Below, piece by piece: positions 16,076 to 60,145 of a DNA stretch of 64,000 bases (positions are counted from its first letter, which is position 1; each line of letters opens with the position of its first letter). Position numbers and translations under genes: made by a program. The stretch is from an uncultured virus (IMG/VR IMGVR_UViG_2061766007_004243). Its lineage: Duplodnaviria > Heunggongvirae > Uroviricota > Caudoviricetes. The notes beneath the pieces were generated by a model that did no database searches, was not told the origin of the DNA, and worked only from the letters and a program-made list of their open reading frames with translations. The stretch lies in IMG/VR virus record IMGVR_UViG_2061766007_004243. One strand, 5' to 3'.

Positions 16076-16110
16076 ATTCACACGATCAGTAACAGGAGGA
16101 AAACACACAT

Positions 16111-16590
16111 ATGGCACAAGATAACAGGATAATGGATTGGAACGATACCATTCAGGATGACGGCAGGGAATTCATCATCCTGCCCGAAGGCGATTACTAT
16201 TTTACCGTAACGGATTTCGAGCGCGCGCGTTTTCCCGGCTCCGCCAAGATCCCCGCTTGCAATAAGGCTACGCTGTCCCTGGACATAGATAACGATAAGG
16301 GCATCGCTACTGCGCGCGTCGACCTTATACTCTACCGCACTCTTGAATGGAGGATAGCATCCTTCTTCCGCTCCATAGGCATGAAGAAGCACGGCGAGCA
16401 GGTGGTCATGGACTGGACTAAAGTCGTGGGCGCCAGGGGCAAAGCGCACATAAAGCCGCGCTCATATACGGGTAAGAACGGCGAAGAACGCCAGGCCAAC
16501 AATGTGGAGAACTTTATTGACTGCGACGATCCCAAGGGCCTGGTGGAAACCAAGGATCCTGAACTGCCCTGGGGCAACAGCGGCTTCTGA
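16111..16590 (+). CDS. DUF669-like single-stranded DNA-binding protein
   Basis: FIILPEGDY, FFRSIG, acidic/aromatic tail ELPW; follows Sak4-like gene. Confidence 0.75.
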   Translation: MAQDNRIMDWNDTIQDDGREFIILPEGDYYFTVTDFERARFPGSAKIPACNKATLSLDIDNDKGIATARVDLILYRTLEWRIASFFRSIGMKKHGEQVVMDWTKVVGARGKAHIKPRSYTGKNGEERQANNVENFIDCDDPKGLVETKDPELPWGNSGF

Positions 16591-16640
16591 TGCCGATCAT
16601 GTGCCCCGTTACAGTCAACAGAGTTATCAAGGAGGAGAAT

Positions 16641-17072
16641 ATGCAGAATACCATAAGCCCAAATAGGAAAAAAGAATTGATCAAGTTCCTTTTCAACGCC
16701 AAGCTCGAAGAGCTCAAAAAGGGAGATAGCAAAGCAGTCCAGACACTTGACGACGCGATTCATTTTGCCAGCCTTGACCCTGCAGATCCGGAATATGCCG
16801 AAAAACTTCTCAAGCTCAGAAAACGGATGCGTCTTCATGAGCTCATAACGAAAGCTGAGGAAGCTATCAAAGCAACGGGAGATCCCTTGTGTTTTGATGA
16901 CGCGTATACAGCCATCTGCGAAGTCATCGAATCGGCAGCCGCGCGCTTTGCCGGTAAACCCTGTCCCAAACACGCGGCGGATCTGCTCGGACTTATACGT
17001 TGCCGGGATCTGCTGTTAGAATCCGAGCCCATCGTCTATGAGGTCTGTGACGGCGGGGAGGCTGGGAGCTGA
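16641..17072 (+). CDS. Hypothetical protein
   Basis: AAGGAGG SD before MQNT; stop overlaps helicase start. Confidence 0.7.
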   Translation: MQNTISPNRKKELIKFLFNAKLEELKKGDSKAVQTLDDAIHFASLDPADPEYAEKLLKLRKRMRLHELITKAEEAIKATGDPLCFDDAYTAICEVIESAAARFAGKPCPKHAADLLGLIRCRDLLLESEPIVYEVCDGGEAGS

Positions 17073-18658: not shown

Positions 18659-18779
18659 GCCCATACGGTAAGGAAAGGCTATGTACAATGATCACAACCA
18701 TAATACCAGACAAGGACCATAAACACAACATATACACGAACACGAAATAAGATAGGACTGAAAACAGGAGGACACTGAT

Positions 18780-29722: not shown

Positions 29723-30091
29723 NNNNNNNNNNAGACATGGAGGATAAAGCACATGACTGAGGATATCAGGAAAGCCCTGCTCGATTTACGAGCCAGGCAG
29801 GAATCAGGCGAACATATGCCCTGCCCCAGATGCGGACGGGATACCATGTACGAGAACTTGTATACCAACGCTCTCAGCCGGGAAGCGNNNNNNNNNNATC
29901 CTCAGTTCACCTGATTCAGAAGCTGTGCGCGAAGGCGGCGGATGAGTCTGTCGGTCTCCCTGTGCGTGAGGCCGATGACTTCAAGGTCGTTCCTTCCGTT
30001 TACGGTGGCCATTAGTATCTCGAAGAGCTCCGTCCTGAAATCCTGTGCGTGGTTCTCCGGTTCCTGATTCCGGAGCANNNNNNNNNNGTTT

Positions 30092-30334
30092 TCAGTTCAC
30101 CTGATTCAGAAGCTGTGCTCGAAGGCGGCGGATTAGCCTGTCGGTCTCCCTGTGCGTGAGACCGATGACCTCAAGGTCGTTCCTTCCGTTTACGGTGGCC
30201 ATCAGGATCTCAAAGATCTCCGTCCTGAAATCCTGTGCGTGGTTCTCCGGTTCCTGATTCCGGAGCAGTTCCCACTCCTTCCTGATTTCAGAGAGTGTGT
30301 AGGTCCTGCGGTCGTTCAGGTCCATAAACTTCAT
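30092..30334 (-). CDS. Small hypothetical protein (80 aa, MKFMDLND..., cassette C)
   Basis: Homolog of 42590..42835 and of fragment 29898-30077; hairpin-SD leader. Confidence 0.8.
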   Translation of the reverse strand: MKFMDLNDRRTYTLSEIRKEWELLRNQEPENHAQDFRTEIFEILMATVNGRNDLEVIGLTHRETDRLIRRLRAQLLNQVN

Positions 30335-30376
30335 GGTATGTGTTCCTTTCCGGGCATAATACCCTGCTTGATTCAG

Positions 30377-30455
30377 GAGCCTGTGGCTCCGGGTGAAGGC
30401 TCTGCTCGATTCCAAAGCCCTCAGCCGGGGCCGCCGGTCGGCGGTGTGCCCGTGC
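30377..30455 (-). ncRNA. Conserved three-hairpin intergenic RNA candidate
   Basis: Homologous to 30553-30633 (-) and 42838-42914 (+); stems conserved, loops variable. Confidence 0.55.
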
Positions 30456-30651
30456 GCAAACGCCCTGCTCGATTTCAGAGCGTGTATCCGCATAAGTCAG
30501 CCATGTCGAGCGCTTCGACGGCGTAGTCTTCCGGGTCGATGNNNNNNNNNNTGTGAGCCTGTGGCTCCGGGTGAAGGCTCCTCTTGATTTGTGAGCCCTC
30601 AGCCGGGGCCGCCGGTCGGCGGTGTTCCCGTGCGCGATGCCCTGCTCGATT

Positions 30652-30900
30652 TCAGAGCGTGTATCCGTATAAGTCAGCCATGTCGAGCGCTTCGACGGCG
30701 TAGTCTTCCGGGTCGATGAAGGGATTCCAGTCGTACAGTTCGACCTTGTCGATTTGCGAGCCCACACAGTCTTCGATGAATTCAGCCCGGGCTTCTGTGT
30801 CCGGGAACCGTATGGCCCCGTCTTCTTCCAACTGTGCCACGGCATCCTCGAAACCGGATCGGATGTCGTCCTCGGTGATGACGGTGATGTACTTCTTCAT
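30652..30900 (-). CDS. Small acidic hypothetical protein (82 aa, MKKYI..., cassette B)
   Basis: Homolog of 42303..42551; hairpin-SD leader. Confidence 0.8.
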   Translation of the reverse strand: MKKYITVITEDDIRSGFEDAVAQLEEDGAIRFPDTEARAEFIEDCVGSQIDKVELYDWNPFIDPEDYAVEALDMADLYGYTL

Positions 30901-30948
30901 GGGGTGTATTCCTTTCCGGGCGTTTCACCCTGTGTTTTTCTGCGGCTT

Positions 30949-31008
30949 CCCGCGACCGGGTACTGTGCCCGGTTTCGGCCGGTTGCCGACCGGCGCTCGT
31001 CAGGCGGG
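30949..31008 (-). ncRNA. Type I hammerhead ribozyme (allele with 1-nt bulge in stem II)
   Basis: cccgc-CUGACGA-g(c)gccgg/ccggcc-GAAA-ccggg/cccgg-UC-gcggg. Confidence 0.85.
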
Positions 31009-31083
31009 GGTGGCCGTCCGGCCTCAGCCGGCCCGGCGCTGTGTCTCGGCCCCGTTGCGCCATGCGGCGTTGCNNNNNNNNNN

Positions 31084-39200: not shown

Positions 39201-40004
39201 ATGAGAGCTATAATGAAAGAAAAGGAGGCTTTTCTCGGGATGCAAAGATTGCTGATACTTTTATTATCGCTCTCATTGCTTTTTGGCGGAGAAATAGAAG
39301 CAAATGCTGATGCTGTCGAAAAGCTGTTTCCGGATTTTTATATCTCTGAATTATATCAGCTGGATCTGGAAGACCCTTATTCCGATGCAAACAGGTATAT
39401 ATCGCGCAAATTCGATTGGCTTGCCGGACAGTATTACATATGCGGCAAATATGTGATCTACGCGGACGAGATGCCTTTGTGTGTGGACGAAGACAGCTTT
39501 GACGAGTGTAGTTTTTGGGGCGAGACAGGTATGGATGTCGTAGAGTGGGCAGCGATAATCATGGGCAAAAGAGGCGATACGGAAGAAATAATAAACAGTA
39601 TCCCAAGGGTCGAAGACATGGATTTTTCCCAGCCCTTGACGAAGGAGCGGCTGAAGCATCTCAATTATTCACTGCAGTTTGAAGAAGAACATTTGATATC
39701 ACTGATGCAGACTGATGATGTAAATAAATATCTGTGGCTCGCGAGCTATCGTGTAGAGACGATACGCTGGGGAGACTGGCTTTTAATCATGTCAGCGCCG
39801 CCACCGACGTTTGAGAAAGAAAAAGATCCATGGTATATAAGGCAGGGCGAATGGGCGTATAAATACTATGCAGACAATCCTGAATACATGAAGCAGGTAC
39901 AGGAGGACGGATACAAGGAAGTGAGACAAGAATTCGGTTACGGCGACCTGTGGGAGATATTCTTCGAGGAACATCCCGAGGCTCTGTACCTGAATGACGA
40001 TTAG
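39201..40004 (+). CDS. Acidic exported hypothetical protein
   Basis: Signal peptide MQRLLILLLSLSLLFGG (true start probably 39240 after aaggagg). Confidence 0.7.
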   Translation: MRAIMKEKEAFLGMQRLLILLLSLSLLFGGEIEANADAVEKLFPDFYISELYQLDLEDPYSDANRYISRKFDWLAGQYYICGKYVIYADEMPLCVDEDSFDECSFWGETGMDVVEWAAIIMGKRGDTEEIINSIPRVEDMDFSQPLTKERLKHLNYSLQFEEEHLISLMQTDDVNKYLWLASYRVETIRWGDWLLIMSAPPPTFEKEKDPWYIRQGEWAYKYYADNPEYMKQVQEDGYKEVRQEFGYGDLWEIFFEEHPEALYLNDD

Positions 40005-40225
40005 AATAGATACAGATTCATAAAAGTCGCAGTAATGACCAAATAAAAGCCAGCTTGATTTGGAAGCAGTGGGGGAGAGCCCGCTGCTTTTCGTTTGCGC
40101 ACGTGAGCCCGTACGTTGGCCCACGTTCGCCTTTGTATCCATTTTCGGGTGAATCACCGTAACCGATTCAAAAGCCCACACGAGGCCGACACGCGCCGTG
40201 GACGAAAAAAGCCGCCTTTCAAAAC

Positions 40226-40314
40226 AAAAAAAAAGCAGGCAGACCACCCTCAACAAAAGGACAACCTGCCTACTTCCATCGTGGTATTTTAACAGTTGCA
40301 GAATGAAATATCAA
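40226..40314 (-). ncRNA. Promoter-hairpin-terminator unit, candidate ~55-nt sRNA
   Basis: TTGATA-17-TAAAAT (40314-40286) followed by gtaggcagg...tctgcctgc and a T9 run. Confidence 0.6.
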
Positions 40315-40364
40315 TAGTCAGTTTGACTGTGACCTAGGATGCGCTTCCCGATTTGGAAGCCCTG

Positions 40365-40600
40365 TCAGAATGGCATGTCAGTGTACGCGGGCATGTAACT
40401 CAGGTTACTGTAGAGCAGCCCGTCTTCATTTACGAACCTTCCGACTGTGGCAATGTAGCCTTTGCCATCCATGATCGCGAACTTGGACAGCGCCAGTTTG
40501 TATATGAGCTCCAGCCTTCGCTCATCCTTAAGGTCAGATGGTCGTCTGATGATCCGTGTCAGGTAATCCGTAATGAATATGGCGGTGTCGCTGTACTCCC
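40365..40600 (-). CDS. Class II glutamine amidotransferase, copy 3, C-terminal fragment
   Basis: EYSDTAIFITDYL...DMPF. Confidence 0.8.
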
Positions 40601-40610
40601 NNNNNNNNNN

Positions 40611-41717
40611 CCAAGTGGTAGCCAAGACACTGCCCACCAACACACTCGGAGACGGAGCCCGGGTGGAGCACACCGGCGGTTCCTACGACACTTGGACGGT
40701 AACGGGTATAGACGGACGGAAGTGGAAACTCATGAGCGACGCCAGCATCGAGGGACCTTTTGAACAACGCACCGAGTTCGTGACCCCCATCTGCCGCTGG
40801 GAAGACATCGAGACGGTACAGGCCATAATCCGGGCTTTGCGGGAAGCCGGGGCACAGGCACACTCCTCCTGCGGCATCCACGTACACATCGGACTGGGTC
40901 AGCATACGCCCAAGACCCTCAGGAACTTGGTGAACATAGTAAACGCCAAGGAAGACCTTCTGACCCAAGCCCTGCAGATAAGCCCGGAACGCCGGGAACG
41001 CTGGTGCCAAGAGGTAGACCCATACTTCCTGCAGGTACTCAACAGGAGAAGGCCGACCACATCCGAACAGCTGGCGCAACTTTGGTATGACGACCGGGAC
41101 TGGGAGTACCACGCTCACGACCATTATGACCGGAGCCGCTACCACCTGCTGAACCTGCATGCGGTGTGGCAGAAAGGCACCATCGAGTTCCGGGCTTTCA
41201 ACAGCACGCTCCACGCCGGGGAGATTAAAGCCTACATACAGCTTTGCATGGCCATAAGCCATCAGGCCCTCACGGTAAGCACAGCGAGCCCCACGAGGCC
41301 GGTGACGGACAACCCCGCATACACCTTCCGGTGCTGGCTCCTCAGGCTGGGGCTNNNNNNNNNNCACGATTGAATTCCGGGCTTTCAACAGCACGCTCCA
41401 CGCCGGGGAGATTAAAGCCTACATACAGCTTTGCATGGCCATAAGCCACCAAGCCCTGACGGTAAGCACAGCGAGCCCCACACGGCCGGTCACGGACAAC
41501 CCCGCATACACCTTCCGGTGCTGGCTCCTCCGACTTGGGCTGAACGGCGAGGAGTTCAAGACCGCCCGGACGCACCTGCTCAAGCACCTGCCCGGCAACG
41601 CCGCNNNNNNNNNNGAACGGCGAGGAATTCAAGACCGCCCGGACACACCTTTTAAAGCACCTGCCCGGCAACGCCGCATGGCGCAACGGGGCCGAGACAC
41701 AGCGCCGGGCCGGCTAA
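40611..41717 (+). CDS. Putative amidoligase (COOH-NH2 ligase type 2), three overlapping fragments
   Basis: WKLMSDASI, EFVTP, SCGIHVHI, RYHLLNL, GTIEFRAFNST, FRCWLLRLG; stop TAA at 41717. Confidence 0.88.
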
Positions 41718-41754
41718 GGCCCGGTGGCCGGGAAGGACGGCCCCATGGAACACA

Positions 41755-41813
41755 CCCGCCTGACGAGGCCGGAGGGCGACCGGCCGAAACCGGGCACAGT
41801 ACCCGGTCGCGGG
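41755..41813 (+). ncRNA. Type I hammerhead ribozyme
   Basis: cccgc-CUGACGA-ggccgg(agggcga)ccggcc-GAAA-ccggg(cacagua)cccgg-UC-gcggg; predicted cut after 41808. Confidence 0.92.
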
Positions 41814-41915
41814 AAGCCGCAGAAAAACNNNNNNNNNNTGCCGAGACACAGCGCAGGGCCGGCTGAGCCGGCCGGGCACACTGAGATGAGCGAGGTGACC
41901 GAATGGAACACACTG

Positions 41916-41974
41916 CCCGCCTGACGAGGCCGGACGGCGACCGGCCGAAACCGGGCACACTACCCGGTCGCGGG
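41916..41974 (+). ncRNA. Type I hammerhead ribozyme (second allele)
   Basis: Same core and stems, loops acggcga and cacacua; predicted cut after 41969. Confidence 0.92.
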
Positions 41975-42021
41975 AAGCCGCACACAATTACACAGGGCGA
42001 AAGCCCGGAAAGGAACACACC

Positions 42022-42255
42022 ATGTTTGACAACTACGAGGACAACTTCAGCGACGAGGCACAGTTTGACGAAACGACCCTGCAGAACGGGCTCATGGAGC
42101 TCATGAGCTACGGCTACGACAGCTCTGAAATCTGCTGGGAGAACCTGCGGGTGCGCACATACGAGGAGGCCGGGGTAATGACCTACGATAAGGGGCTTGT
42201 CATAACCACACCGGACGGTCAGGAATTCCAGCTGACCATCGTTAGGAGCATGTAA
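42022..42255 (+). CDS. Small acidic hypothetical protein (77 aa, cassette A)
   Basis: VRTYEEAGVMTYDKGLVI...DGQEFQLTIV; hairpin-SD leader. Confidence 0.8.
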   Translation: MFDNYEDNFSDEAQFDETTLQNGLMELMSYGYDSSEICWENLRVRTYEEAGVMTYDKGLVITTPDGQEFQLTIVRSM

Positions 42256-42302
42256 GGCTCCCAAATCAAGCAGGGCGCACAGCCCGGAAAGGAACACACA
42301 CC

Positions 42303-42551
42303 ATGAAGAAGTACATCGCCGTCATCACCGAGGATGACATCCGCTCCGGTTTCGAGGAAGCCGTGGCACAGCTGGAAGAAGACGGAGCCATCAGGTTCCC
42401 GGATACAGAATCCCGCACAGAGTTCATAAACGACTGCGTGAGCTGTGAAATCGACAGGTACGAGCTTTACGAGAGCGACCCATTCGCACACAGGCCGGAC
42501 TACGCCGTTGCGGTATTGGATATGGCCGGACTGTACGGATACACGCTCTGA
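42303..42551 (+). CDS. Small acidic hypothetical protein (82 aa, cassette B)
   Basis: Homolog of 30652..30900. Confidence 0.8.
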   Translation: MKKYIAVITEDDIRSGFEEAVAQLEEDGAIRFPDTESRTEFINDCVSCEIDRYELYESDPFAHRPDYAVAVLDMAGLYGYTL

Positions 42552-42589
42552 AATCAAGCAGGGCATCATGCCCGGAAAGGATACACACC

Positions 42590-42835
42590 ATGAAGTTCAT
42601 GGATCTTAACGACCGCAGGACTTACACACTCTCTGAAATCAAGAGGGACTGGTCACAACTCCGGAATCAGGAACCGGAGAATCACGCTCCTGATTTCAAG
42701 ACTGAGCTCTTCGAGATACTCATGGCCACAGTCAACGGCAGGAACGACCTCGAGGTCATCGGCCTCACACACAGGGAGACCGACAGGATCATCCGCCGCC
42801 TTCGCGCACAGCTGCTGAATCAGGCAGACCGTTGA
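42590..42835 (+). CDS. Small hypothetical protein (81 aa, cassette C)
   Basis: Homolog of 30092..30334. Confidence 0.8.
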   Translation: MKFMDLNDRRTYTLSEIKRDWSQLRNQEPENHAPDFKTELFEILMATVNGRNDLEVIGLTHRETDRIIRRLRAQLLNQADR

Positions 42836-42837
42836 CA

Positions 42838-42914
42838 CACGGGCACGCCGCTTAAGCGGCCCCGGCTGAGGGCTCACGAATCGAGCTGAGCCTTCACCCG
42901 GAGCCACTGGCTCA
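42838..42914 (+). ncRNA. Conserved three-hairpin intergenic RNA candidate
   Basis: gccgc-ttaa-gcggc; ccgg.tgagggct/agccttca.ccgg; agcc-act-ggct. Confidence 0.55.
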
Positions 42915-42946
42915 CGTATCTTTCAAATCAAGGAGGACACTCACAC

Positions 42947-43518
42947 ATGTGCATCATCTGCGTATCANNNNNNNNNNTCGCACCATGTTCCTCAGGAATC
43001 CCCACGGAGCCGGTTACATGTTCGCACGCAACGGGAAAGTACATATCCGCAAGGGCTTCATGAACCTCACCGCGCTTTCAAATGCGCTAAAGGTTGAGAA
43101 GTTCACGGACAACGACCCGGTCGTCTACCATTTCCGCATCAGCACGCAAGCGGGCATCAACCCCCAGATGACGCATCCGTTCCCGCTCTCAAATCAGCCG
43201 GCGCACATGAAAGCGCTGGATGTTGACTGCAGGTGTGGGATAGCGCACAACGGGATAATCGACATAACCACTGACCCGCGCAATCGTGAGTACAGCGACA
43301 CGGCCATATTCATTACGGATTACCTGACACGGATCATACGCAGACCGTCCGACCTTAAGGATGAACGGAGACTGGAGCTCATATACAAACTGGCCCAGTC
43401 CAAGTTCGCCATCATGGACGGCAAAGGCTACATTGCCACAATCGGAAGGTTCATAGATGAAGACGGACTTCTGTACAGCAACCTGAGCTACATACCCGCA
43501 TACGACTTACCGTTCTGA
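42947..43518 (+). CDS. Class II glutamine amidotransferase, copy 4 (gap near 5' end)
   Basis: AAGGAGG SD then ATG-TGC (MCIICV, N-terminal nucleophile Cys); NPHGAG, HFR, HNG. Confidence 0.9.
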
Positions 43519-43712
43519 CACAGCTTCCAAATCAAGAAGCGCGTTTTGCCGCCTGCGGGCGGCTTTTTTCGTCTCTCGCACGTGTTGGCTTGTACGNNNN
43601 NNNNNNNNNNNNNNNNNNNNNNNNNNNNNNNNNNNNNNNNNNNNNNNNNNNNNNNNNNNNNNNNNNNNNNNNNNNNGGGCTCTCCCCCACTGCTTCTAAA
43701 TCGAGTCGCGCG

Positions 43713-44243
43713 TTATTTGCTGAACCGCAGAGTGTCCTTGCTGATCTTCACGCCTTTGGATGTGCTTTTAAAACGCAGTACCAGCTCGCCTTCTGCCACT
43801 TTGTACACCGCGGAGAAGGGCCTCTCCATCATGAACGACAGCCCCGGGCAGCGCCTTAGCGCTTCCTTCCGGTACGGTTTGAAATCCGCGCCGGCTTTCT
43901 CCGCCAGCCACCGCACGTACAGTTCCTCAAGGATACGTGTCTGCTCTTTCTGTATCTGTGCCCAGGCTTCCTCGCCGGGAGTGTCTTTGAAATCGTCCCG
44001 GTGAGTTTTGTCATTGAACACCGCCCACTCCTCGATCGGCAGCGGGCTGTTCATGAATTGCAGCACACTTTCTGCGTTCCCACAATCCGGGCACACGAAA
44101 ATTCCATCGGCGTGTCTGCTTAGGGCGTTAGCGTAAAGCTTGGGCAGCATTGTATCCCTGCCGCATCTGGGGCAGGGCATGTGTTCGCCTGATTCCTGCC
44201 TGGCTCGTAAATCGAGCAGGGCTTTTCTGATATCCTCAGTCAT
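43713..44243 (-). CDS. Zinc-ribbon protein (complete copy)
   Basis: CPRCG...NALSR...CPDCG. Confidence 0.8.
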   Translation of the reverse strand: MTEDIRKALLDLRARQESGEHMPCPRCGRDTMLPKLYANALSRHADGIFVCPDCGNAESVLQFMNSPLPIEEWAVFNDKTHRDDFKDTPGEEAWAQIQKEQTRILEELYVRWLAEKAGADFKPYRKEALRRCPGLSFMMERPFSAVYKVAEGELVLRFKSTSKGVKISKDTLRFSK

Positions 44244-44594: not shown

Positions 44595-45263
44595 TCATTC
44601 ACCATCACCTGCTTCCAAATCGGCAGGGGCGTGTATCGTTTCGCGCTGCGCCCTGCGCCGGGAATTGACCCTTGCGATGTGCGCGTCCAGCTGTGCCTTG
44701 CTCTTGAATGCGGCGTAGCCCTTCAGGTGTCCGGTGAGCAGGCGTCTGTGCGCGCTGTGCTCCGGTCCGGCCATGCCCAGCTGATTGAGGAAACTGTAGC
44801 AGTAATACTTCATCTCATCCTCAGCCGGGTCAACGAGCTTACGGCTCACATTTCCCGCGCTTCGGGCACGCTCCAGAATGCGGTCCAGCAGCCGCGCGTA
44901 GATCACGATCTCATCCTGCGTATGCTCCGCACCCGGTACTGTTATGCCCAGGCTGTCGCTGGTCAGCTGTATCCCTTTGACCATACCCACACGGATCTCG
45001 TTCTGTACCAGCTCCGAAATACGCTCGAGGGTATCGGGCTTTTCATCGTCCAGCAGGTCGATCAGTTCTTCATCGATGTATATCTCGCCGTTTTGGATCA
45101 TGGCTGCCAGGAGTTTCTGGCGCGCGTACAGTACCCTGATCAGGCTGCGCATGGCTTTGGGAGTCATATTACCAATGGATATGCTGATATCCAGGCGGTC
45201 GGGCTGCGTGGGTTCTGGCGGCATATTGACTGCTTCGTGGTTCTGTGTTCTTGCTCTCGGCAT
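44595..45263 (-). CDS. Homolog of the 27149-27860 protein lacking its N-terminal domain (second allele fragment 45315-45470)
   Basis: LYARQKLL, KYY.YSFLNQLG, GHLKGYAAFK; AGGAGG SD. Confidence 0.75.
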   Translation of the reverse strand: MPRARTQNHEAVNMPPEPTQPDRLDISISIGNMTPKAMRSLIRVLYARQKLLAAMIQNGEIYIDEELIDLLDDEKPDTLERISELVQNEIRVGMVKGIQLTSDSLGITVPGAEHTQDEIVIYARLLDRILERARSAGNVSRKLVDPAEDEMKYYCYSFLNQLGMAGPEHSAHRRLLTGHLKGYAAFKSKAQLDAHIARVNSRRRAQRETIHAPADLEAGDGE

Positions 45264-45545: not shown

Positions 45546-47124
45546 CTAAGCTGTACAATGGGAGGGCAATGGCCTGACGAATTCCTCCAAGAGCATCACG
45601 CTCGTTTGGAAGTCAGTCAGCCGGCCTTCCCGTTGTGCAGCGTTCGATTTGTGCAGGTAGAGCACCCATAAGGGGCACTCGAGTCAGCGAACAGATAGAA
45701 TCGGCGATGGGTAAAGGCGGTTCGCCATTGTANNNNNNNNNNCAACACATCGGGAGGATTCAACATGTTCGCAGTAGGAGTCGATGTTTCCAACGGCAGA
45801 AGCACAGTCGCTGTACTTGGAGCCAGGAGAACAGTGGTGGTGAGGCCGTATGAGGTTCCACACACAGCGGATGGTTTTGCCGAGCTGACGGCAAGGCTCA
45901 ATGATCTGGATGGCGAGGTCAGGATCGTCATGGAGCATACCGGGCGGTACTATGAATCGTTAGCCATGAGTATGTACCGGGCAGGCTTCTTTGTGTCTGC
46001 CGTGAACCCTCTGGCTATCAAGGATTACCAGGAGGGGATCAGCGTCCGGAAGGTGAAGACCGACAAAGCAGACGCCCTGAAGATCGCCCAGTTTGCCATT
46101 GACAAATGGGAGATCCTGCCGCAGTATAGTCCCATGGATACGATTCGCTACGACCTCAAGACCATTCACCGGCAGTTCCAGCTGTCCTCCAAGACCAAGA
46201 CCGCGCTGAACAACAATCTGATCGCTCTGTTGGAGCAGAGCTACCCCGGCGCGAACAGGTACTTCGACAGCCCGGTCCGGCCGGACGGCAGCCAGAAATG
46301 GGTGGACTTCGCAGACACCTTCTGGCACGTGGACTGTGTGGCCAAGGTCAGCCGAAAGACTTTTACGGAGCGGTACCGGAAGTGGTGCAAGCGTCACGGA
46401 TACAACTTCTCCGAAGCCAAGGCTGTCGAAATTCACGAGGATGCCAGGCAGAAGTTCCCGCTAGTACCCAAGTCCGACACCTGCAAGCTTTTGGTCAAGG
46501 AAGCTGTTAGCCAGCTCAACGCTGTTTCCCGCACGGTGGAAACCTACCGCGCTGAGATGGATCGCCTGGCCTCTCAGCTTCCGGAATACGAGACTGTCAT
46601 GGCCATGACCGGCGTGGGCAAGTCCATGGGACCGCAGTTGATGGCAGAGATCGGCGACCTTCGCCGCTTTGCGCACCAGAAGTCTCTGGTAGGCTTTGCC
46701 GGCACCGATCCGATCAAGGATGATTCCGGCGACAAGGTTTCCGACAGCAANNNNNNNNNNGCGCGGTTCTCCTTACCTTCGCAAGACGCTCTTTGTTATC
46801 ATGACGATCCTGCTGCAGCTTCAGCCCCCGGACGATCCTGTCTACCAGTTCCTGGACAAAAAGCGCTCCGAGGGCAAGCAGTACTATGTGTACATGACTG
46901 CCGGCATGACCAAGTTCCTGCGCATCTACTACGGTAGGGTCCGTGATTGTCTCAAAGAGAAAGGTCTCTGGGAGCAGCCCTCTGTTGATGAGGTCAACCC
47001 TGGTTGACAGGGGTTGGGAACCAACCCCTTGACTGTCCATGAGCATAGACAGCACGACGAGTCAAGGATGCCGTAGGCACGGCCGAAGGCCGCTTGTCCT
47101 TGACGCGGCGGGATGGCTGTGCTA
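45546..47124 (+). mobile_element. IS110-family insertion sequence with long structured left end
   Basis: DEDD recombinase plus ~200-nt structured upstream region; shared CTA core at 45546-45548 and 47122-47124 (ends inferred). Confidence 0.7.
45765..47007 (+). CDS. IS110-family recombinase/transposase (frame broken only at gap 46751-46760)
   Basis: VGVDVS, MEHTG.Y, VNP, KTDKADA, GVG, AEIGD..RF, DSG, RGSPYLR. Confidence 0.92.
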
Positions 47125-53922: not shown

Positions 53923-56460
53923 TCATTCGGAACGGACGACGCTTGTTATGTCAAACTGACAATAGTAGTGTTCGACCCAGGGGTTGACGAGATAGGCCGG
54001 CATGGGCGGTCTTCCCTTGCCATAGCTTGCCGTGGGCTGGACAGTGGTGATATAGCCGTAGTCCTCGAGGAAATCCAGGACGGGCTGGATTTCAGCCACA
54101 GTCTTGAACATCTGGCAGTTGCGCATGGCCGTCCTGCGGTTGAACTCCTGCAGCCGCTTGTCATGCAGCATCTTCAGAATCTTGTGCGCGTTCTGGAACA
54201 TGGCGTTATCGGGCAGGACGTTGAACACAGCCTGGGCGTGGTTCAGGAAGTACCTTCCCAGCCGGATGGCATTTTTCATTGTCTGCCCATCGATCACAAG
54301 CGGCTCGGGCACATCGAGAAAGTCATGGCAGCGCTCGACAGACGACCTGCACAGCAGCCCCGCAATACGCAGCGTATTGCCAGGCAGCTTGCCACACCAG
54401 TCTGCGATTTCGGCGTACTCCTTCACGAGCTTGCCTTCGATCTCGTCCGAGAACGCTTCCAGCAGCCTGTCCGCTTCAGGGGACAACGTGATGAGCTCAG
54501 GCCTTTCCGAGTACTCATCTTCCAGCAGGTTGAAGATACGGCGCTCATAGGCTTCGTAGACGCCGGGCGGGACCTGCGTACTCCGGTACTGCCTTGATCC
54601 GACGATGGATTTGGGCATGCTGTAGAGGAAACGCGCGGTGAGGCCCCTGCCGCGGAAGGTCTTGTTGCTCAGGACCCTGGACACGGCTTCAGGCTGCGCC
54701 ATCATGAGAATCGTGAGCGAGGGTCGCATAATGCTCTCGCTTTCCCTGCCGATACGGTCAACCCGGATTGGATCTCCAGAATAACTTTTAAGCAGCACGT
54801 CAATATTGGGCATTTTGCTGTATGCGCCCGCGAAGGTGTCGAACAGGCCCGCTTCGCTGGAAAGCACCGACATGCGTCCGTCGTTCTCAGCCAGCACGGA
54901 CACCAGTTTTTCCGGCGTGATGTCATCCGCGAACAGACGAAGGGGCTTCCGCGGGATGTATTCCGTCAGTTCCCTGGCGATTTTGTCCGCTTCGGACTGC
55001 TCCGCTTTCCCTTTTGCGATCTGCTCCTCGATCGCTTTTTGCCTGCGTTCAAGGATGCGCATGTGCATGCGGCTCGTTTCGACCGCTGCGGCGTGCTCCC
55101 GGTTATAACGGCTCTCGTAAGTGCTGAGCGGGCTTACCGGTCCGTGCTGCGCAGCGGATTTTCTCTCGGACGGTGCCGCGATAACAACTTCATACAAGTG
55201 TGGCGGCTCCTTCCAGTCGGGCTTGGCCTGAATTTCGTATTTGCCATTCATGCTTGCCGATACTGCACTAAGAACGCTGCAGCCTACCATGTCGGGTGGT
55301 ACCTGAATGCTGTCAGCGTAGGCGTTTACGTAGTCTGCCAAAACAGGAGGCAGCGCGTCCACGGGAAATGCGGTAATAGTATGTTTGCCAAAGGGAATCG
55401 GCTCCTCCCATGAGGAAGACACTTCTTCGAAATCCTTCTGCGCCTTCGCCGTCCGCTCCGTCTGCAGCGCTTTGCAGACCTCTTCATCCTCTTCGGCCAG
55501 CGCGCACATCTGCTGGAACGAGCCCTCCCCGTCGCCAAAGCGGTGCAGCCGGACGAGGTCGAAGGCGTTCAGCAGTTTGCCCCCAGCCGGGTCAGTCGCG
55601 TGATGGCTGTAGGCAAATTTACCGTCGTAGATCACGACGCCTGCTGTGCCCTCGCCGGGGATGTAATCGTAGCGGCCTTCCTTGAGAGACGGCGAATATA
55701 CACTTGACAGGTACTTTTTGATCGCGTCGTGGATGCTGTAGGTGCGGCAGAACGCACCGACAATGCCGCTTTTGGTCAGCGGGTCTTCCTGCTTTCTGCC
55801 GTCGGAAGCCCGCAGCGGCTTTTCCTTGCTGGCGATCGGCAATTTGGAACAGTCGCGCCAATCCGGATACGCGGCAAGGAAATCCATGGCGTTCAGGAAC
55901 GGTCCGTCGACCACCTTACAGATGTACTCGCCGTCTGACGGAGTCGAAGGCCAGTACATCAGCTGGTTTACCTTGTAGGAGCACATATCAAACTGGTCGA
56001 TGCCCCACTGAGCGGCAAAGTATCTGGCGACCGCGTTATAGCAGTCCGGGGTGATGTCCTTTTCGAAGGGCATTACAATCCTGTACCGGGGAGCCTCGGG
56101 CGTATGCCCGTGGGTGGTATAAACCGCCGCCGCATAACCGCACCGGCTGAGAAACTTATTCAGGAACCCCATGTCTGCGGTGTCGGAATCGAGTGTGAGC
56201 AGCGACCGGCATTCCACGTTCTCTGCCAGGCGTCTGCCGTCCCTGAGGCTGCCGCCGACAAAACCGCCGATGTCTTTTGCCTTCTCTTTATCGTCCCGGC
56301 TCATGGCGTGATACTCTGCAACCGTCTCGCGCGTCCTGAGCGTGGTCTTCAGCTTCTCGCAGAGCTTTTCCCAGCTGATCGTGCTGTTCGTCCATTTCAG
56401 GGAGTCGGCGCTGCGGCCGAGGGCAATCTTTAAATCGCGCATATCTGGTTCTCCTTTCAC
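53923..56460 (-). CDS. Primase-like N-terminus fused to DUF3987 (YfjI-like) helicase domain
   Basis: GGFVGG, LTLD.D, YTTHGH...PRYR, QLMYWPS, GAFCR, SHHATDP; APSERKS, DITPEKL, DRIGR, RGLTARFL. Confidence 0.8.
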   Translation of the reverse strand: MKGEPDMRDLKIALGRSADSLKWTNSTISWEKLCEKLKTTLRTRETVAEYHAMSRDDKEKAKDIGGFVGGSLRDGRRLAENVECRSLLTLDSDTADMGFLNKFLSRCGYAAAVYTTHGHTPEAPRYRIVMPFEKDITPDCYNAVARYFAAQWGIDQFDMCSYKVNQLMYWPSTPSDGEYICKVVDGPFLNAMDFLAAYPDWRDCSKLPIASKEKPLRASDGRKQEDPLTKSGIVGAFCRTYSIHDAIKKYLSSVYSPSLKEGRYDYIPGEGTAGVVIYDGKFAYSHHATDPAGGKLLNAFDLVRLHRFGDGEGSFQQMCALAEEDEEVCKALQTERTAKAQKDFEEVSSSWEEPIPFGKHTITAFPVDALPPVLADYVNAYADSIQVPPDMVGCSVLSAVSASMNGKYEIQAKPDWKEPPHLYEVVIAAPSERKSAAQHGPVSPLSTYESRYNREHAAAVETSRMHMRILERRQKAIEEQIAKGKAEQSEADKIARELTEYIPRKPLRLFADDITPEKLVSVLAENDGRMSVLSSEAGLFDTFAGAYSKMPNIDVLLKSYSGDPIRVDRIGRESESIMRPSLTILMMAQPEAVSRVLSNKTFRGRGLTARFLYSMPKSIVGSRQYRSTQVPPGVYEAYERRIFNLLEDEYSERPELITLSPEADRLLEAFSDEIEGKLVKEYAEIADWCGKLPGNTLRIAGLLCRSSVERCHDFLDVPEPLVIDGQTMKNAIRLGRYFLNHAQAVFNVLPDNAMFQNAHKILKMLHDKRLQEFNRRTAMRNCQMFKTVAEIQPVLDFLEDYGYITTVQPTASYGKGRPPMPAYLVNPWVEHYYCQFDITSVVRSE

Positions 56461-57554
56461 AGAATAATTTCACGGTCGCGTCCGTCGAGACTCATACGGA
56501 ACTCCCTCAATGCGCCTTTCCAGTAGGGCTGAATGAAAACCGTTTTGCCGTCCCCGTAGTGACGCCAATGACCGATCACATACCAGACCAGTGTGTGGCG
56601 TTCGAATTCACGGTCAGAGCCGTATTGAGCCCTATGGATGTCATCCGCGTTAATGACATGCTTACGGATATAACGGACAAATCTCCTGTGATTGCCTTTC
56701 TTTCCATATGCCGCGTATACGGGTTCGGTTCGGGGATTACGGAAGACGTCCTTTACGGTCGGGTGCAGCAGCGCAACCTGGATGCCGTACCACGTAGTCA
56801 TATGCTCGTAGACAAGATCAATCATGCCCATCTGCTTCCACTGCCGTCTGCATGAATTAAGTATCTCCGCAGGAACATTGCGATGACCTGTTTTTTCGAT
56901 CATTATTGTGTCTACTCCCTTGCAAACGCTGAACGGAAAGATGAACGTGTACCCATTAAGATCAATAAGCAGAGCGCCGACATCAACCGGCTCGTCGCCC
57001 GCCGATTCTATGCGTTCCCTGTAATCCGGAAAAATGACGACGCGGTAAGAACAGACCAGGCCGTTGGGTTCATCGGTTTCGTCCACGACGATCTCACAGT
57101 CCATCATCGGGATTCTCCCGCTGAAAAAGATGTCGGAAGGTAACCGCCCCTTCGGAACGGAGCAGCCCTTCATCCAAAGCTCGCACAGGGCCTCGTCATC
57201 CGCTCTTTTCAGGCATATTCTGTCGTCGGGGCGCGAACGCCTGATGTCCTGCCAAAGCGCTTCGTTCTCTGATCTGTTCAGAAACTTTACTGGAAAAAGA
57301 TTCAGCGCGCTGTTTGCGCTGTTGATTTTGCCGGTGGAGAGTATTTTGCTGAGCGCATCCTGACAACGCCTGGGGGTGACGCCCGCTGCTTCGGCATAAA
57401 GCTTTGCTTCATCCATGAAACGGAAAAAATCTTCTTCCGGCATTGAGAGAAACCAAGCGCGCGTTTTTTCATACATATCGATAGTCAGGACCTGCCTCAC
57501 TGCGTACAGCACTTCGTCTACGACCTGTTCCCTGGGCATATTCCTGTAGTCCAT
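56457..57554 (-). CDS. Hypothetical protein with C-terminal W.V.GHWR...K..FI.PYWKG motif
   Basis: 365-aa ORF with AGGAGG SD, coupled to primase. Confidence 0.75.
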   Translation of the reverse strand: MDYRNMPREQVVDEVLYAVRQVLTIDMYEKTRAWFLSMPEEDFFRFMDEAKLYAEAAGVTPRRCQDALSKILSTGKINSANSALNLFPVKFLNRSENEALWQDIRRSRPDDRICLKRADDEALCELWMKGCSVPKGRLPSDIFFSGRIPMMDCEIVVDETDEPNGLVCSYRVVIFPDYRERIESAGDEPVDVGALLIDLNGYTFIFPFSVCKGVDTIMIEKTGHRNVPAEILNSCRRQWKQMGMIDLVYEHMTTWYGIQVALLHPTVKDVFRNPRTEPVYAAYGKKGNHRRFVRYIRKHVINADDIHRAQYGSDREFERHTLVWYVIGHWRHYGDGKTVFIQPYWKGALREFRMSLDGRDREIIL

Positions 57555-57722
57555 AAGTCAACCTCCTATTAAATTGTTTTGAGTCTTTCATCTTTCTGAG
57601 CAAGCCATCTTACCCGGTGAGGTAATGGGATTCTGTATAAACTGCTCCTAACTGGTGTCGCCGTATCGCATATTCGCACATTCCTTTCATGTGATAGTGG
57701 GAGGCGGATCATCCTCTCACCA

Positions 57723-57924
57723 GCTATGTAGCCAAACAGTGCATTTTTCCGGTCCGCAGAAAAATATTTTTTCTGCGCGCGGGCGTGAAAAGTTTTCTGA
57801 AAAAAGTTTCGGGGGCACCGGAAAAACAGGTCCTTTGGCTACATAGCTTGTGGAAGGACGAAATCCGGAGCGTCCTTCAAAAAAGTTTTCGGATGACCGG
57901 AAAAACAGGTGGTTTGGCTACATA
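57723..57924. promoter_or_regulatory. Three copies of CCGGAAAAA-N7-TTTGGCTACATA, divergently oriented
   Basis: 57723-57752 (-), 57818-57847 (+), 57897-57924 (+). Confidence 0.75.
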
Positions 57925-57944
57925 TCGGGTGAAAGGAGGTCCAC

Positions 57945-58115
57945 ATGGATGAAAACAGGCCCGCCAATGATCAGGAACTGATCGATGTGCTGATCGCAAT
58001 CAGCGTTGTAGCGAGGCGATTGGCAAGGAAACTGGAAATCTTGGAAAAGGAGAAACACCATGAGCAAAATGAACGAACTGATGCAGACGCTGGATGCCCT
58101 TATCGCGTGCGGTGA
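57945..58115 (+). CDS. Small hypothetical protein (56 aa, below the ORF-track cutoff)
   Basis: GAAAGGAGGT SD; ELIDVLIAISVVARRLARKL. Confidence 0.65.
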   Translation: MDENRPANDQELIDVLIAISVVARRLARKLEILEKEKHHEQNERTDADAGCPYRVR

Positions 58116-58428
58116 GACGCTCATCCGGTCGGCATCTGCCATCCGCGAAATGTTCAAAAGTGACGCGGAACTGACACCGGCGCATGATCCCGACCTGCCG
58201 TGGCCTGAAAAGGGAGAGCCCGCGCAGCAGGAGCTTCCAAAGGAGGGCCCCGAAGCAAAGACATACGCAAAAGAAGATGTCCGCGCCATGCTGGCTGAGT
58301 TGTCACAGACGGGGCACCGTGCTGAAGCAAAAGCGCTGGTAAGCAAATACAGCGGAGGCGGCACTTTTGCGGACGTGCCTGCCGCGAAGTATAACGAACT
58401 GGTAAAGGAGATTATAAGCTATGCCTGA
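58060..58428 (+). CDS. Conserved phage protein preceding DUF2800
   Basis: MSKMNEL...EDVRAMLAELS..G..AE.KAL..KY. Confidence 0.75.
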   Translation: MSKMNELMQTLDALIACGETLIRSASAIREMFKSDAELTPAHDPDLPWPEKGEPAQQELPKEGPEAKTYAKEDVRAMLAELSQTGHRAEAKALVSKYSGGGTFADVPAAKYNELVKEIISYA

Positions 58429-59544
58429 TCACGCGCTGCTATCCGCGTCGTCCAGCTACCGCTGGCTCAACTGTCCGCCCAGCGCGAGGCTTGCAGCTGA
58501 ATACCCTGATACCTCATCCCCCTATTCCCTGCAAGGCACGCAGGCGCACAGCCTTGCCGCCTATAAGGTAATGCGGGCGTTGGGCATGGACGCAAAAGAC
58601 CCCACCGGGGAGTTGACCCTGTTAGATCATGAAATGGAAGACTGCACCGACGCTTACTGCGCCTTCGTCATGGAACAGCTGGCGGAGACCAAGAAGCACT
58701 GTTCCGACCCCGTTGTGCTGGTAGAGCAGCGGCTGGACTTCTCCCACTGGGTACCTGAGGGCTTTGGCACAGGAGACGCCTGCATCGTAGCTGATGACCA
58801 CCTGCACGTCATCGATTTCAAATACGGCATGGGCGTTCTTGTGGAAGCTGAGCGCAATCCGCAGATGATGTGCTACGCACTGGGGCTGTTGGAGGCTTTC
58901 GACGAAATCTACACTATCCGCACAATCCGTATGAGCATCTTTCAGCCCCGGCGAGACAATGTTTCGACGTATGAGATCAGCAAGCGCGATCTGCTTTTCT
59001 GGGCTGAGACTGTGCTCGCCCCTACCGCCAAACTGGCATACAAGGGAGAAGGCACCTTCAAGGCGGGCGATCACTGCCGGTTCTGCCCCGTCAAGGCTAC
59101 CTGCCGGAAACGGGCCGAGTACAACCTGGAAATGGCGCGCTACGACTTTACGCCGCCTGCGACACTAAGCGAGGATGAAGTCGCCGCAATACTGCCCCGC
59201 CTGGACGAGCTGGTGGCGTGGGCGGATGATGTGAGAGCTCATGCCCTGGCGCAGGCGATCTCGGGCACACACTATCCTGGGTTTAAGCTTGTAGCCGGAC
59301 GCTCCGTAACAAAGTACACCGACGAGGACGCCGTGGCGCTTGCCGTCAANNNNNNNNNNNNNNNNNNNNNNNNNNNNNNNNNNNNNNNNNNNNNNNNNNN
59401 NNNNNNNNNNNNNNCTTTGATGAGCTGCTTGGCGGTCTGACCTACAAACCCCAGGGCAAACCCGCGCTCGTGCCGGAGAGCGATAAACGCCCGGCAATCA
59501 CTACAGTCAACAATGATTTTATGGAGGAAAATGAACATGAGTAA
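58421..59544 (+). CDS. DUF2800 Cas4-like PD-(D/E)XK exonuclease (spans N gap)
   Basis: HALLSASS..RWLNCPPS, GTQAH, EQRLD, FGTGD, IDFKYG, NPQM..YALG, HCRFC. Confidence 0.88.
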
Positions 59545-60100
59545 ATTCGTCAATTCCTGCAAAGTAATCACCGGTCCCAATACCCGCTGGTTCTACGCAA
59601 ACGTGTGGGAAGCCCGCGCCATCAACGGCGGGACACCCAAGTTCTCCGTCAGCCTGATCATCCCGAAAACGGACACAGAGACCATAAATAAAATCAACCG
59701 TGCAATTCAGGCTGCTTACGAGGAAGGCCAAAGCAAGCTGAAGGGCACCAGTAAGTACATGCCCAGTCTTGAGGACATCAAGAACCCGCTGCGCGACGGC
59801 GACAAGGAGCGCAAGGGCGATCCCACGTATGCCGGGTGCATGTTCATCAACGCCAACAGCAGCACCGCGCCGGGCATCGTGGACGCCGACCGTCAGCCCA
59901 TTCTGGAGCGTTCCGAGGTATACTCCGGCGTGTATGGCAGGGCGAGCATTACCTTCTACGCCTTCAACTCCAACGGCAATCGCGGTATCGCCTGCGGCCT
60001 GAACAACCTGCAGAAGATCCGTGACGGTGAGCCGCTGGGAAGCCGCAGCCGTGCTGAGGATGACTTCGACACCGATGATGACGACGATTTCCTGTCATAA
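59537..60100 (+). CDS. DUF2815 (T7 gp2.5-like) single-stranded DNA-binding protein
   Basis: YANVWE, PKFSVSLIIPK, PLRDGD, YSGVY, GIACGLNN, acidic tail DDDDDFLS. Confidence 0.9.
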   Translation: MSKFVNSCKVITGPNTRWFYANVWEARAINGGTPKFSVSLIIPKTDTETINKINRAIQAAYEEGQSKLKGTSKYMPSLEDIKNPLRDGDKERKGDPTYAGCMFINANSSTAPGIVDADRQPILERSEVYSGVYGRASITFYAFNSNGNRGIACGLNNLQKIRDGEPLGSRSRAEDDFDTDDDDDFLS

Positions 60101-60145
60101 AAAAACACCGGGCAGCAGAGTGATGAGCTCTGCTGCCCGGCAGGA

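Follow-up and report, generated by a model that had tools for sequence, protein, structure and literature searches.

A prophage-like amidoligase operon punctuated by type I hammerhead ribozymes or by an alternative three-hairpin RNA

Introduction

Two groups of described systems lie closest to the locus reported here, which occupies positions 40611 to 43570 of a 64,000-nucleotide record of an uncultured virus (IMG/VR IMGVR_UViG_2061766007_004243; this whole stretch is called the window below) and combines an amidoligase gene, short open reading frames (ORFs) and a glutaminase-like gene with hammerhead ribozyme motifs and a second structured RNA, named RNA2 here. On the protein side, phage sets of amidoligase, class II glutamine amidotransferase (GATase) and gamma-glutamyl cyclotransferase were reportedly predicted by Iyer et al. 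in 2009. An amidoligase accompanied by a GATase or a cyclotransferase has since been annotated in LUZ24-like phages and in C. clostridioforme prophages (PMC3890496, PMC11318856). On the RNA side, Perreault et al. 2011 (PMC3088659) describe multiple prophage hammerheads that flank single genes or short gene blocks; such arrays cleave in vitro (Clostridium scindens, Azorhizobium and Agrobacterium), and their proposed role is processing into single-gene mRNAs. A 2019 review calls the purpose of bacterial hammerheads undefined and notes a tendency of ribozymes to lie close to one another and to particular types of gene (PMC6765202).

The operon family to which the locus belongs resembles the arrays of Perreault et al. 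in having several co-oriented prophage hammerheads per transcription unit, set between small genes of changing identity. It differs, compared with the text of that paper, in that the hammerheads are tied to an amidoligase operon, are of type I and have a fixed stem I (CCCGC/GCGGG), in that the conserved tail is predicted to fold into a 5'-terminal hairpin, and in that a non-hammerhead RNA replaces the hammerhead in some operons. With the phage amidoligase sets it shares an Amidoligase_2 gene that is co-oriented with a class II GATase-like and/or a cyclotransferase gene in a phage accessory region. However, the GATase here is a stand-alone protein of 190-200 aa below all Pfam thresholds, whereas the LUZ24-type protein has 486 aa and matches GATase_6 (PMC3890496), and the GATase-like and cyclotransferase genes are mostly alternatives here. 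Neither PMC3890496 nor PMC11318856 mentions ribozymes, and a literature text search, which did not reach the early prediction and ribozyme-discovery papers, returned no paper pairing 'hammerhead' with 'amidoligase'. A preliminary description of this DNA had singled out the locus as the best candidate for an undescribed system; this was an overstatement, for prophage hammerhead arrays (PMC3088659) and phage amidoligase/GATase/cyclotransferase sets (PMC3890496, PMC11318856) are both in print.

Results

An amidoligase operon conserved in Clostridia-type bacteria

Scanning one genome per species yielded 117 stretches encoding relatives of the amidoligase, and 80 loci were kept (L001-L080), all of them from Clostridia-type bacteria or metagenome-assembled genomes and many from ruminant or other animal guts. 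Many of these loci are cut by contig ends; 40 show the operon end, which lies 1.0 to 5.3 kb from the amidoligase. On the amidoligase strand we found a GATase-like gene in 31 of the 80 loci, a gamma-glutamyl cyclotransferase gene in 38, and relatives of the three small ORFs of the window (ORF1 in 22, ORF3 in 6 and ORF2 in 1), while a convergent gene for a Cys-rich zinc-ribbon protein is present in 40/80. The set of small ORFs between the enzymes differs from locus to locus, and hammerheads occur in 53/80 loci, all on the operon strand. The preliminary picture of an RNA-punctuated locus with variable cassettes is borne out by these loci, and the linkage is conserved well beyond the genome in which it was noticed, contrary to the condition that would have refuted that picture.

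In four well-assembled loci the operon stands between prophage genes on the opposite strand, and flanking genes of this orientation encode the small and large terminase subunits, a ParB-type DNA methylase, SAM synthetase, a DUF1492 sigma-like regulator and integrases. The context of the operon is prophage-like, and the region in the window is probably most of an accessory operon in a prophage of a gut Clostridia-type bacterium.

Order of the locus within a chimeric scaffold

The window contains 53 runs of N, mostly 10 nt long, and at 20 of them the last 40-376 nt of the left-hand piece return, at 75-98% identity, as the start of the right-hand piece. Three of the five gaps within the locus (41355, 41605 and 41829) have such duplicated ends. 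The window is a chimeric, 'stuttering' scaffold, in which variant contigs from strains or paralogous copies were chained by the scaffolder. Since variant ends overlap at the gaps, a single hammerhead site has been assembled into two, at 41755-41813 and 41916-41974; the pieces flanking the gap 41829-41838 overlap by 131 nt at 83% identity. Once the duplicated ends are collapsed, the order is Amidoligase_2 gene, type I hammerhead, ORF1, ORF2, ORF3, RNA2, stand-alone class II (N-terminal nucleophile, Ntn) glutaminase-like gene and terminator:

40612..41717, plus strand: Amidoligase_2 gene, in three overlapping variant pieces (40612-41354, 41365-41604 and 41615-41717), with a TAA stop at 41715-41717
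41755..41813, plus strand: type I hammerhead motif, variant copy on the short piece 41615-41828 (68.9 bits with our own covariance model), the same site as 41916-41974
41839..41866, plus strand: duplicate of the amidoligase 3' end on the next piece, with a TGA stop at 41864-41866, overlapping across the gap 41829-41838
41916..41974, plus strand: type I hammerhead motif (70.3 bits with our own covariance model)
42022..42255, plus strand: ORF1, 77 aa, acidic (16 Asp and Glu, 4 Lys and Arg; pI ~4.1)
42256..42302, plus strand: leader module before ORF2, with a hairpin spanning the ORF1 stop codon, the motif CAAAUCAAG, a small GGGC/GCCC hairpin and a Shine-Dalgarno sequence
42303..42551, plus strand: ORF2, 82 aa, acidic (pI ~4.1), also found on 3 viral contigs
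42590..42835, plus strand: ORF3, 81 aa, near-neutral (pI 6.7), also found on 9/10 RNA2-bearing viral contigs
42841..42913, plus strand: RNA2, with hairpin P1 at 42847-42860 (extended by pairing of 42841-43 with 42861-63), the long hairpin P2 at 42862-42901 and P3 at 42902-42912
42920..42946, plus strand: leader of the GATase-like gene, with the motif CUUUCAAAUCAAG followed by the Shine-Dalgarno sequence AAGGAGG (42930-42936)
42947..43518, plus strand: stand-alone class II (Ntn) glutaminase-like gene, starting MCIICVS, with an N gap (42968-42977) that hides ~12 codons relative to homologues
43548..43569, plus strand: intrinsic-terminator-like hairpin with a T run, marking the operon end

The minus strand at ~29900-31070 holds a second operon variant, which comprises an amidoligase 3' end, a hammerhead, an ORF2 homologue, RNA2 (assembled twice) and an ORF3 homologue. 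Its RNA elements, and an inverted gene fragment next to the amidoligase of the first variant, are:

30359..30460, minus strand: RNA2 copy of the second operon variant (96 bits), upstream of the ORF3 homologue
30537..30638, minus strand: RNA2 copy on the neighbouring piece (75.2 bits), a dovetail duplicate of 30359-30460 across the gap 30542-30551
30949..31008, minus strand: third hammerhead motif (73.0 bits with our own model), after the amidoligase 3' end and before the ORF2 homologue
40365..40600, minus strand: inverted C-terminal fragment of another GATase-like gene, adjoining the amidoligase via a scaffold gap alone

Because the last of these is inverted and joined across the gap 40601-40610, its adjacency to the amidoligase is not real. 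Fragments of genes from the operon end recur in the window (4 GATase-like, 7 Cys-rich and 3 p222). The GATase-like gene, first counted as four copies, is present as four fragments, each truncated at a gap and with reported pairwise nucleotide identities of 83-90%, and the count is largely an assembly artefact.

With so many breaks, it might be asked whether the whole arrangement is an assembly chimera without biological linkage, as the N runs, the variant overlaps and the inverted fragment would allow. We consider this extremely unlikely, since the same order of amidoligase, hammerhead or RNA2, small ORFs, GATase-like or cyclotransferase gene and convergent Cys-rich gene is found on uninterrupted genome and viral contigs.

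A type I hammerhead sub-family with a fixed leader

The hammerhead core pattern matches the window three times, against 0.02 matches expected by chance, and all three copies carry CUGACGA...CGAAAC...GUC in the canonical type I topology, with stem I open and stems II and III closed by loops. The preliminary count of three hammerheads is correct as a count of motifs, but two of these are the site that was assembled twice and the third belongs to the other operon variant, so that each variant in the window has one true hammerhead. At 41916-41974 the predicted cut falls after C41969, between GUC and GCGGG, and would leave a 52-nt leader before ORF1.

Among the 80 amidoligase loci, the pattern combined with a stem I filter found 113 hammerheads in 45 loci, and a covariance model built from 101 copies found 138 in the 53 loci mentioned above. 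The densest array has 10 hammerheads in a 7.5-kb locus (L016), followed by 9 in L017, with one degenerate copy counted in each. In the 101 aligned copies, the core positions C3-A9, G12 and U16.1 (the U of the cleavage triplet) are invariant, A13, A14, A15.1 and C17 are conserved in at least 90%, and the A15.1-U16.1 pair is kept in 100/101. Stems II and III had been left unconstrained by the search pattern. Nonetheless, 95.5% of the stem cells are paired and 267 cells are compensatory, and none of 500 shuffles reached either this paired fraction or the covariation score; slid controls of the alignment pair at 29-46%. Changes on both sides were seen in 10 of the 17 pairs, a number of pairs that 12/500 shuffles reached. 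Loop II nearly always contains GGC and the 3' tail GCC, which would be the two sides of a candidate pseudoknot between loop II and the stem I side, a tertiary contact needed for fast cleavage; neither varies across copies, so that covariation is uninformative here.

The placement of the hammerheads relative to genes is equally regular. Of the 113 copies, 112 precede an ORF of 40 aa or more with a start codon and a Shine-Dalgarno sequence; the median distance from cut to start is 46 nt, and the upstream stop codon precedes stem I by a median of 18 nt (100 hammerheads with an upstream stop within 200 nt). The 3' product opens with GCGG(G/A)A(A)GCC, and a 5'-terminal hairpin starting within 3 nt of the new end is predicted for 86 of the 104 distinct 3' products, compared with a shuffle mean of 22.7 and a maximum of 34. 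Contigs from public RNA runs (small shares of two studies, from which neither ends nor strand nor level can be read) include hammerhead-, leader- and RNA2-like pieces.

Rfam Hammerhead_1 (RF00163) has the same core and the same three-stem topology and matches these copies over its full length, but the score falls below gathering, so that routine annotation misses them. A scan of 11 hammerhead-free amidoligase loci against Rfam returned no ribozyme and one tRNA only. We conclude that the operon family carries a new type I hammerhead sub-family that is missed by Rfam and has a fixed 5'-hairpin leader.

Two hammerhead-like copies depart from this plan, in that a ~25-nt hairpin is inserted exactly at the position of the cleavage site (L017:2331-2430 and L025 ~4966-5060). 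In the L017 copy, GUAA also replaces GAAA in the core. Both are probably inactive relics.

RNA2 takes the slot of the hammerhead

The 110 nt after ORF3 have a single-sequence fold z-score of -4.45 against shuffles, and searches of Rfam with a 131-nt query and with 40000-44000 gave nothing plausible even at E <= 10. A pattern scan of metagenome contigs gave 121 matches, 15 of them with full RNA2 context, and 20 distinct sequences from the metagenome contigs, the window and the amidoligase loci were aligned. Their consensus fold consists of hairpin P1, the long imperfect hairpin P2 (a helix of ~15-19 pairs) and the short hairpin P3, followed by a hammerhead-type leader. The search pattern had fixed part of P2; the covariance model was then run on the unbiased amidoligase loci, where it found further copies in L012, L013, L029 and L035 and a partial one in L031. 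In the divergent copies (L035, L029, L013 and L031:1220) the P2 helix is kept with different letters, its base having been rewritten with full compensation. Across 26 distinct rows fitted to the model, 97% of the cells pair and 12 of 22 pairs (11 of the 14 in P2) change on both sides, which 0/500 shuffles reached. The second structured RNA of the preliminary description is thus real and conserved. The first copies hinted at another pairing, GG[C/U]U with A[G/A]CC, which was dropped because later copies did not keep to it.

On viral contigs, 10 of the 16 loci hit by the pattern hold a true RNA2 (14 copies), each within an amidoligase operon. L213 and L214, with three and two RNA2 copies, are free of hammerheads by model search, and in both RNA2 stands directly 3' of the amidoligase, the slot that a hammerhead fills in L215, L201 and the window. 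Both elements meet in L206, which has four hammerheads and one RNA2. RNA2 is an uncatalogued three-hairpin RNA that takes the hammerhead's slot, and as such it is new. By eye, its P1 (CCGCC...GGCGG) and tail might be taken for a hammerhead unit in which a small loop stands in place of the core and P2 has been inserted.

It would be tempting to see in RNA2 a new class of self-cleaving ribozyme that does the job of the hammerhead. RNA2 substitutes for hammerheads in L213 and L214, is conserved with covariation and has no family match in Rfam, and newer ribozyme classes were found by their nearness to known ribozymes (PMC6765202, PMC5737381). However, the consensus is just three plain hairpins, the entire P2 helix is rewritten in divergent copies, and the conserved letters of the 32 distinct copies lie almost entirely in helices, with no junction or loop core such as known ribozymes conserve. 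We therefore rate self-cleavage as very unlikely and favor an RNase-dependent or barrier role. The likeliest role for RNA2 is a non-catalytic one: a host RNase guided by double-stranded RNA or by hairpins may act on it, or it may serve as a stability barrier. Processing that depends on an RNase is a plausible assignment, which we make tentatively. The bolder proposal that RNA2 is a new RNA-processing element (at its boldest, a new ribozyme class) interchangeable with hammerheads before phage accessory genes, with the RAAUCRAG motif of the leaders as part of a shared recognition system, seems to us decidedly unlikely.

Hairpins of a related kind are known from phage T7, where RNase III processes hairpins between the early genes. 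RNA2 may be like these in being a long imperfect intergenic hairpin that would split the transcript and leave protective hairpins, but its P2 helix has just ~15-19 pairs, and the likeness is one of analogy, not of family membership. In a purely passive alternative, RNA2 and the leader hairpins would serve as decay barriers or translational insulators, and no cut would be made at RNA2. Stable hairpins directly after stop codons and ahead of the next Shine-Dalgarno sequence are consistent with this, as is the single type of tail hairpin that follows both hammerheads and RNA2. We nevertheless regard it as rather unlikely, because a passive hairpin leaves the alternation with a cutting element in one slot unexplained and because P1, P2 and P3 are jointly kept in 35 copies.

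A strand-specific leader motif

Up to three short proteins with repeated leaders had been noted in the preliminary description; three small ORFs with such leaders are confirmed, and the leaders share a motif, YYNRAAUCRA, which usually comes after a short hairpin and precedes most Shine-Dalgarno sequences (42256-42302, 42552-42589 and 42920-42946 in the window, and loci L001-L080). Further copies lie immediately 5' of hammerheads, and others form part of the stem III loop in some hammerheads and of the P2 loop in RNA2. In the leader at 42920-42946, a small predicted hairpin pairs the Shine-Dalgarno sequence. Counts of the motif over the 80 loci are 428 for the operon strand and 39 for the opposite strand, against ~37.5 expected from base composition; for 197 of the 428, a Shine-Dalgarno sequence and a start codon come within the next 80 nt. 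This strand-specific leader motif is a new item; candidate roles are a recognition site for an RNase or protein, a ribosome stand-by site or a joint for cassette recombination.

The last of these roles can be extended to a view in which the leader motif and its flanking modules serve chiefly at the DNA level, as joints where recombination shuffles cassettes, and the RNA structures are secondary. Cassette content and order do differ between the two window variants and L201, L206, L213-L215 and L017, the motif stands on both sides of hammerheads, and the assembly breaks at the repeats. Yet the strand bias of the motif is strong, many G-U pairs of RNA2 hold on the operon strand only, and compensatory changes in the helices point to selection on RNA. 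We judge this view unlikely.

Short modules before accessory genes are familiar from other phages, namely the promoter/stem-loop cassettes of T4-type phages and the start-associated sequences of cluster K mycobacteriophages. The leaders described here are similar in that a short conserved module precedes many small accessory genes at points of gene gain and loss, but the module consists of a hairpin, RAAUCRAG and a Shine-Dalgarno sequence, lacks a promoter and often comes with a ribozyme.

Two further observations concern leader-like or upstream sequences. Opposite the 5' coding region of the convergent Cys-rich gene, on its antisense strand (44205-44225, plus strand), stands the same 14-mer, AAATCGAGCAGGGC, as in an operon leader (30470-30490, minus strand), and relatives keep GCTTTCAAATC at this antisense site; the sharing may be a coincidence of the conserved peptide LDLKARQ or may mark a site of RNA-RNA pairing. 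Upstream of the operons in L053-L057 and L069, the first ~150 nt contain GC-rich tandem repeats (CCCCGGCGGGC-like) followed by a TATATA box, which could be a promoter region with a repeat array.

The amidoligase and its two alternative partners

The first ~21 codons of the amidoligase are lost in the N gap 40601-40610 (by tblastn with the full-length homologue from L017, residues 22-294 are covered). The piece 40612-41352 matches Pfam Amidoligase_2 (PF12224) at 1.6e-55 (189.1 bits, cut-off 22) over profile positions 30-244 of 245, and the full-length homologue matches at 215 bits over positions 1-244. Its predicted activity is that of an ATP-dependent carboxylate-amine ligase.

A segment of the amidoligase C-terminal tail (41500-41717, plus strand) is also found in a convergent downstream protein of 222 aa (44598-45263, minus strand). 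This protein matches PHROG 2443 'amidoligase enzyme' at 7.6e-11, and the two cross-match by tblastn in viral loci.

At the other end of the operon, the GATase-like protein is a stand-alone domain of 192-204 aa without a coupled synthase or acceptor domain. Its initiator Met is directly followed by Cys, and this C2 is invariant in 26 homologues, which were selected by a pattern requiring it. The best sequence-level hint is NCBIfam GlmS (E 0.033, 12.5 bits, cut-off 381). The AlphaFold model of a homologue, computed from the 26-sequence alignment, has a pLDDT of 87.9, and Foldseek matches it to 38 PDB chains at E <= 0.001; the chains listed belong to GFAT/GlmS, EgtC and a P. aeruginosa protein predicted to be a glutamine amidotransferase, the best at 2.7e-6, and PurF follows at weaker E-values. 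Against EgtC and GlmS/GFAT the Foldseek probability is 1.00, the query-normalised TM-score 0.51-0.63 and the sequence identity 12-18%. EgtC, the Ntn hydrolase of the ergothioneine pathway (PDB 4zfj, 4zfk and 4zfl), and the glutaminase of GlmS/GFAT (1xff and 6zmj) have the same fold and an N-terminal Cys nucleophile; the GATase-like protein has no sequence-level match to them and no attached synthase domain. Because Cys is residue 2 and the fold matches that of glutaminases, the model identifies it as a stand-alone class II (Ntn) glutaminase-like enzyme. The proposal that an amidoligase and an Ntn amidotransferase-like gene with Cys2 bracket the locus is therefore well founded.

A gamma-glutamyl cyclotransferase had not been seen in the locus, and tblastn found none in the window; in the relatives, by contrast, a cyclotransferase gene is what usually stands in for the GATase-like gene. 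Among the 40 complete operons, 16 have a cyclotransferase (Pfam GGACT 7.6e-11 in L018); counted by content, 24 have only a GATase-like gene, 12 only a cyclotransferase, 4 both and none neither. This near-exclusive alternation is a new item, and it suggests an operon core made of a ligase and one of two enzymes, either of which can act on gamma-glutamyl amides, with small ORFs in varying number between and around them.

A different division of labor can be imagined, in which the amidoligase and the GATase-like protein do not write and erase a modification but together form a split glutamine-dependent amidotransferase, with ammonia from glutamine amidating a carboxylate in the manner of MurT/GatD. 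The class II glutaminase fold with its nucleophile Cys would suit such an enzyme, and both genes are co-oriented in 28 of the 40 complete operons. However, 12 of the 40 have the cyclotransferase instead, which fits a shared role in gamma-glutamyl cleavage, and EgtC, a hydrolase, is among the close neighbors by fold. We regard a split amidotransferase as a less likely alternative.

Small proteins and neighboring genes

ORF1-3 match no Pfam, PHROG or NCBIfam family, and a protein atlas gave unnamed clusters alone for ORF1 and nothing for ORF3. The C-terminal half of the ORF1 family is very conserved; the AlphaFold model of ORF1 has a pLDDT of 53, too low for use. The preliminary description, which had these proteins as rich in Glu and Asp, is right for ORF1 and ORF2 but not for ORF3. 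The roles that it suggested for them, as substrates, specificity factors or anti-defence effectors, gain no support from these searches.

A tRNA/tmRNA scan of the window found none. Other genes of mobile elements in the window (1499-3229, 15032-20771, 45765-46937 and 53923-62140) encode a type IV coupling protein, AAA_24/helicase/primase and DUF2800/PolA replication modules, DUF3987 and an IS110 transposase; because the scaffold is chimeric, nothing is concluded from them. In two related prophages, a Phd/ParE toxin-antitoxin pair and a HipA-like gene lie just upstream of the amidoligase operon (L018:3941-4590 and L042:4515-4844).

Discussion

We propose that the operon is transcribed as a single RNA, in which each hammerhead would cut itself after the GUC triplet, as its sequence and structure and the published in vitro work on other arrays suggest. 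After such a cut, the upstream message would carry the folded ribozyme at its 3' end, closed by a cyclic phosphate. The downstream message would have its new end, a 5'-OH, ~46 nt before the start codon, followed by a short terminal hairpin, by RAAUCRAG as a single-stranded patch and by the Shine-Dalgarno sequence. In this way a polycistronic RNA could yield single-gene messages that are each stabilised on their own, and a cassette that brings its leader along would become swappable. RNA2 would be a second intergenic module for the same slot, built of three hairpins and the same tail. At the protein level, we speculate that the ligase makes a glutamate-type amide bond on some target and that the Ntn enzyme, like its structural neighbor EgtC and like the cyclotransferase found instead in other operons, removes or processes a gamma-glutamyl group. 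Taken as a whole, with a prophage operon, an RNA layer, RNA2 and a write/erase protein layer, this is in our view the best explanation and a rather likely one.

Several points weigh against it. The window is itself a chimeric scaffold. By model search, 27 of the 80 amidoligase loci lack a hammerhead, including most of the Lacrimispora-type loci at ~55% identity (L058 onward). Neither the window nor 15 hammerhead-rich loci gave an Rfam match at gathering score, and Hammerhead_1, though aligned over its full length, scores 13.5 bits against a gathering score of 34. The aligned copies of the hammerhead and of RNA2 are related, so that their counts are not independent events, and the RNA2 covariation comes from an alignment fitted to the model. 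The GATase-like protein matches no Pfam family at E <= 0.05, including GATase_2/4/6/7, and no PDB entry by sequence, whether searched as a single sequence or as a 26-sequence profile. Finally, cutting changes the predicted access to the Shine-Dalgarno sequence only slightly: its unpaired probability rises from 0.49 to 0.57 (among related sequences), and in 104 leaders accessibility goes up in 41, goes down in 5 and is unchanged in 58. We had considered release of the Shine-Dalgarno sequence upon cleavage as a function of the ribozyme, but with a shift of this size we keep it as no more than a weak hint.

The operon family has implications for the annotation and the biology of these prophages. 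Annotation based on Rfam overlooks an entire sub-family of type I hammerheads, and RNA2, at ~75 nt, is a simple, testable RNA from a ribozyme-rich neighborhood. Moreover, the family offers a natural comparison, because the same genes stand behind a hammerhead in one phage and behind a non-hammerhead RNA with the same tail in another; with this alternation, what cutting adds can be asked directly. The phage amidoligase hypothesis is also sharpened, since the ligase has an Ntn hydrolase or a gamma-glutamyl cyclotransferase as its partner; this choice of partners suggests that a gamma-glutamyl amide is cleaved. If it is true that the small acidic proteins are anti-defence factors, the leader modules would mark a system for the exchange of cassettes.

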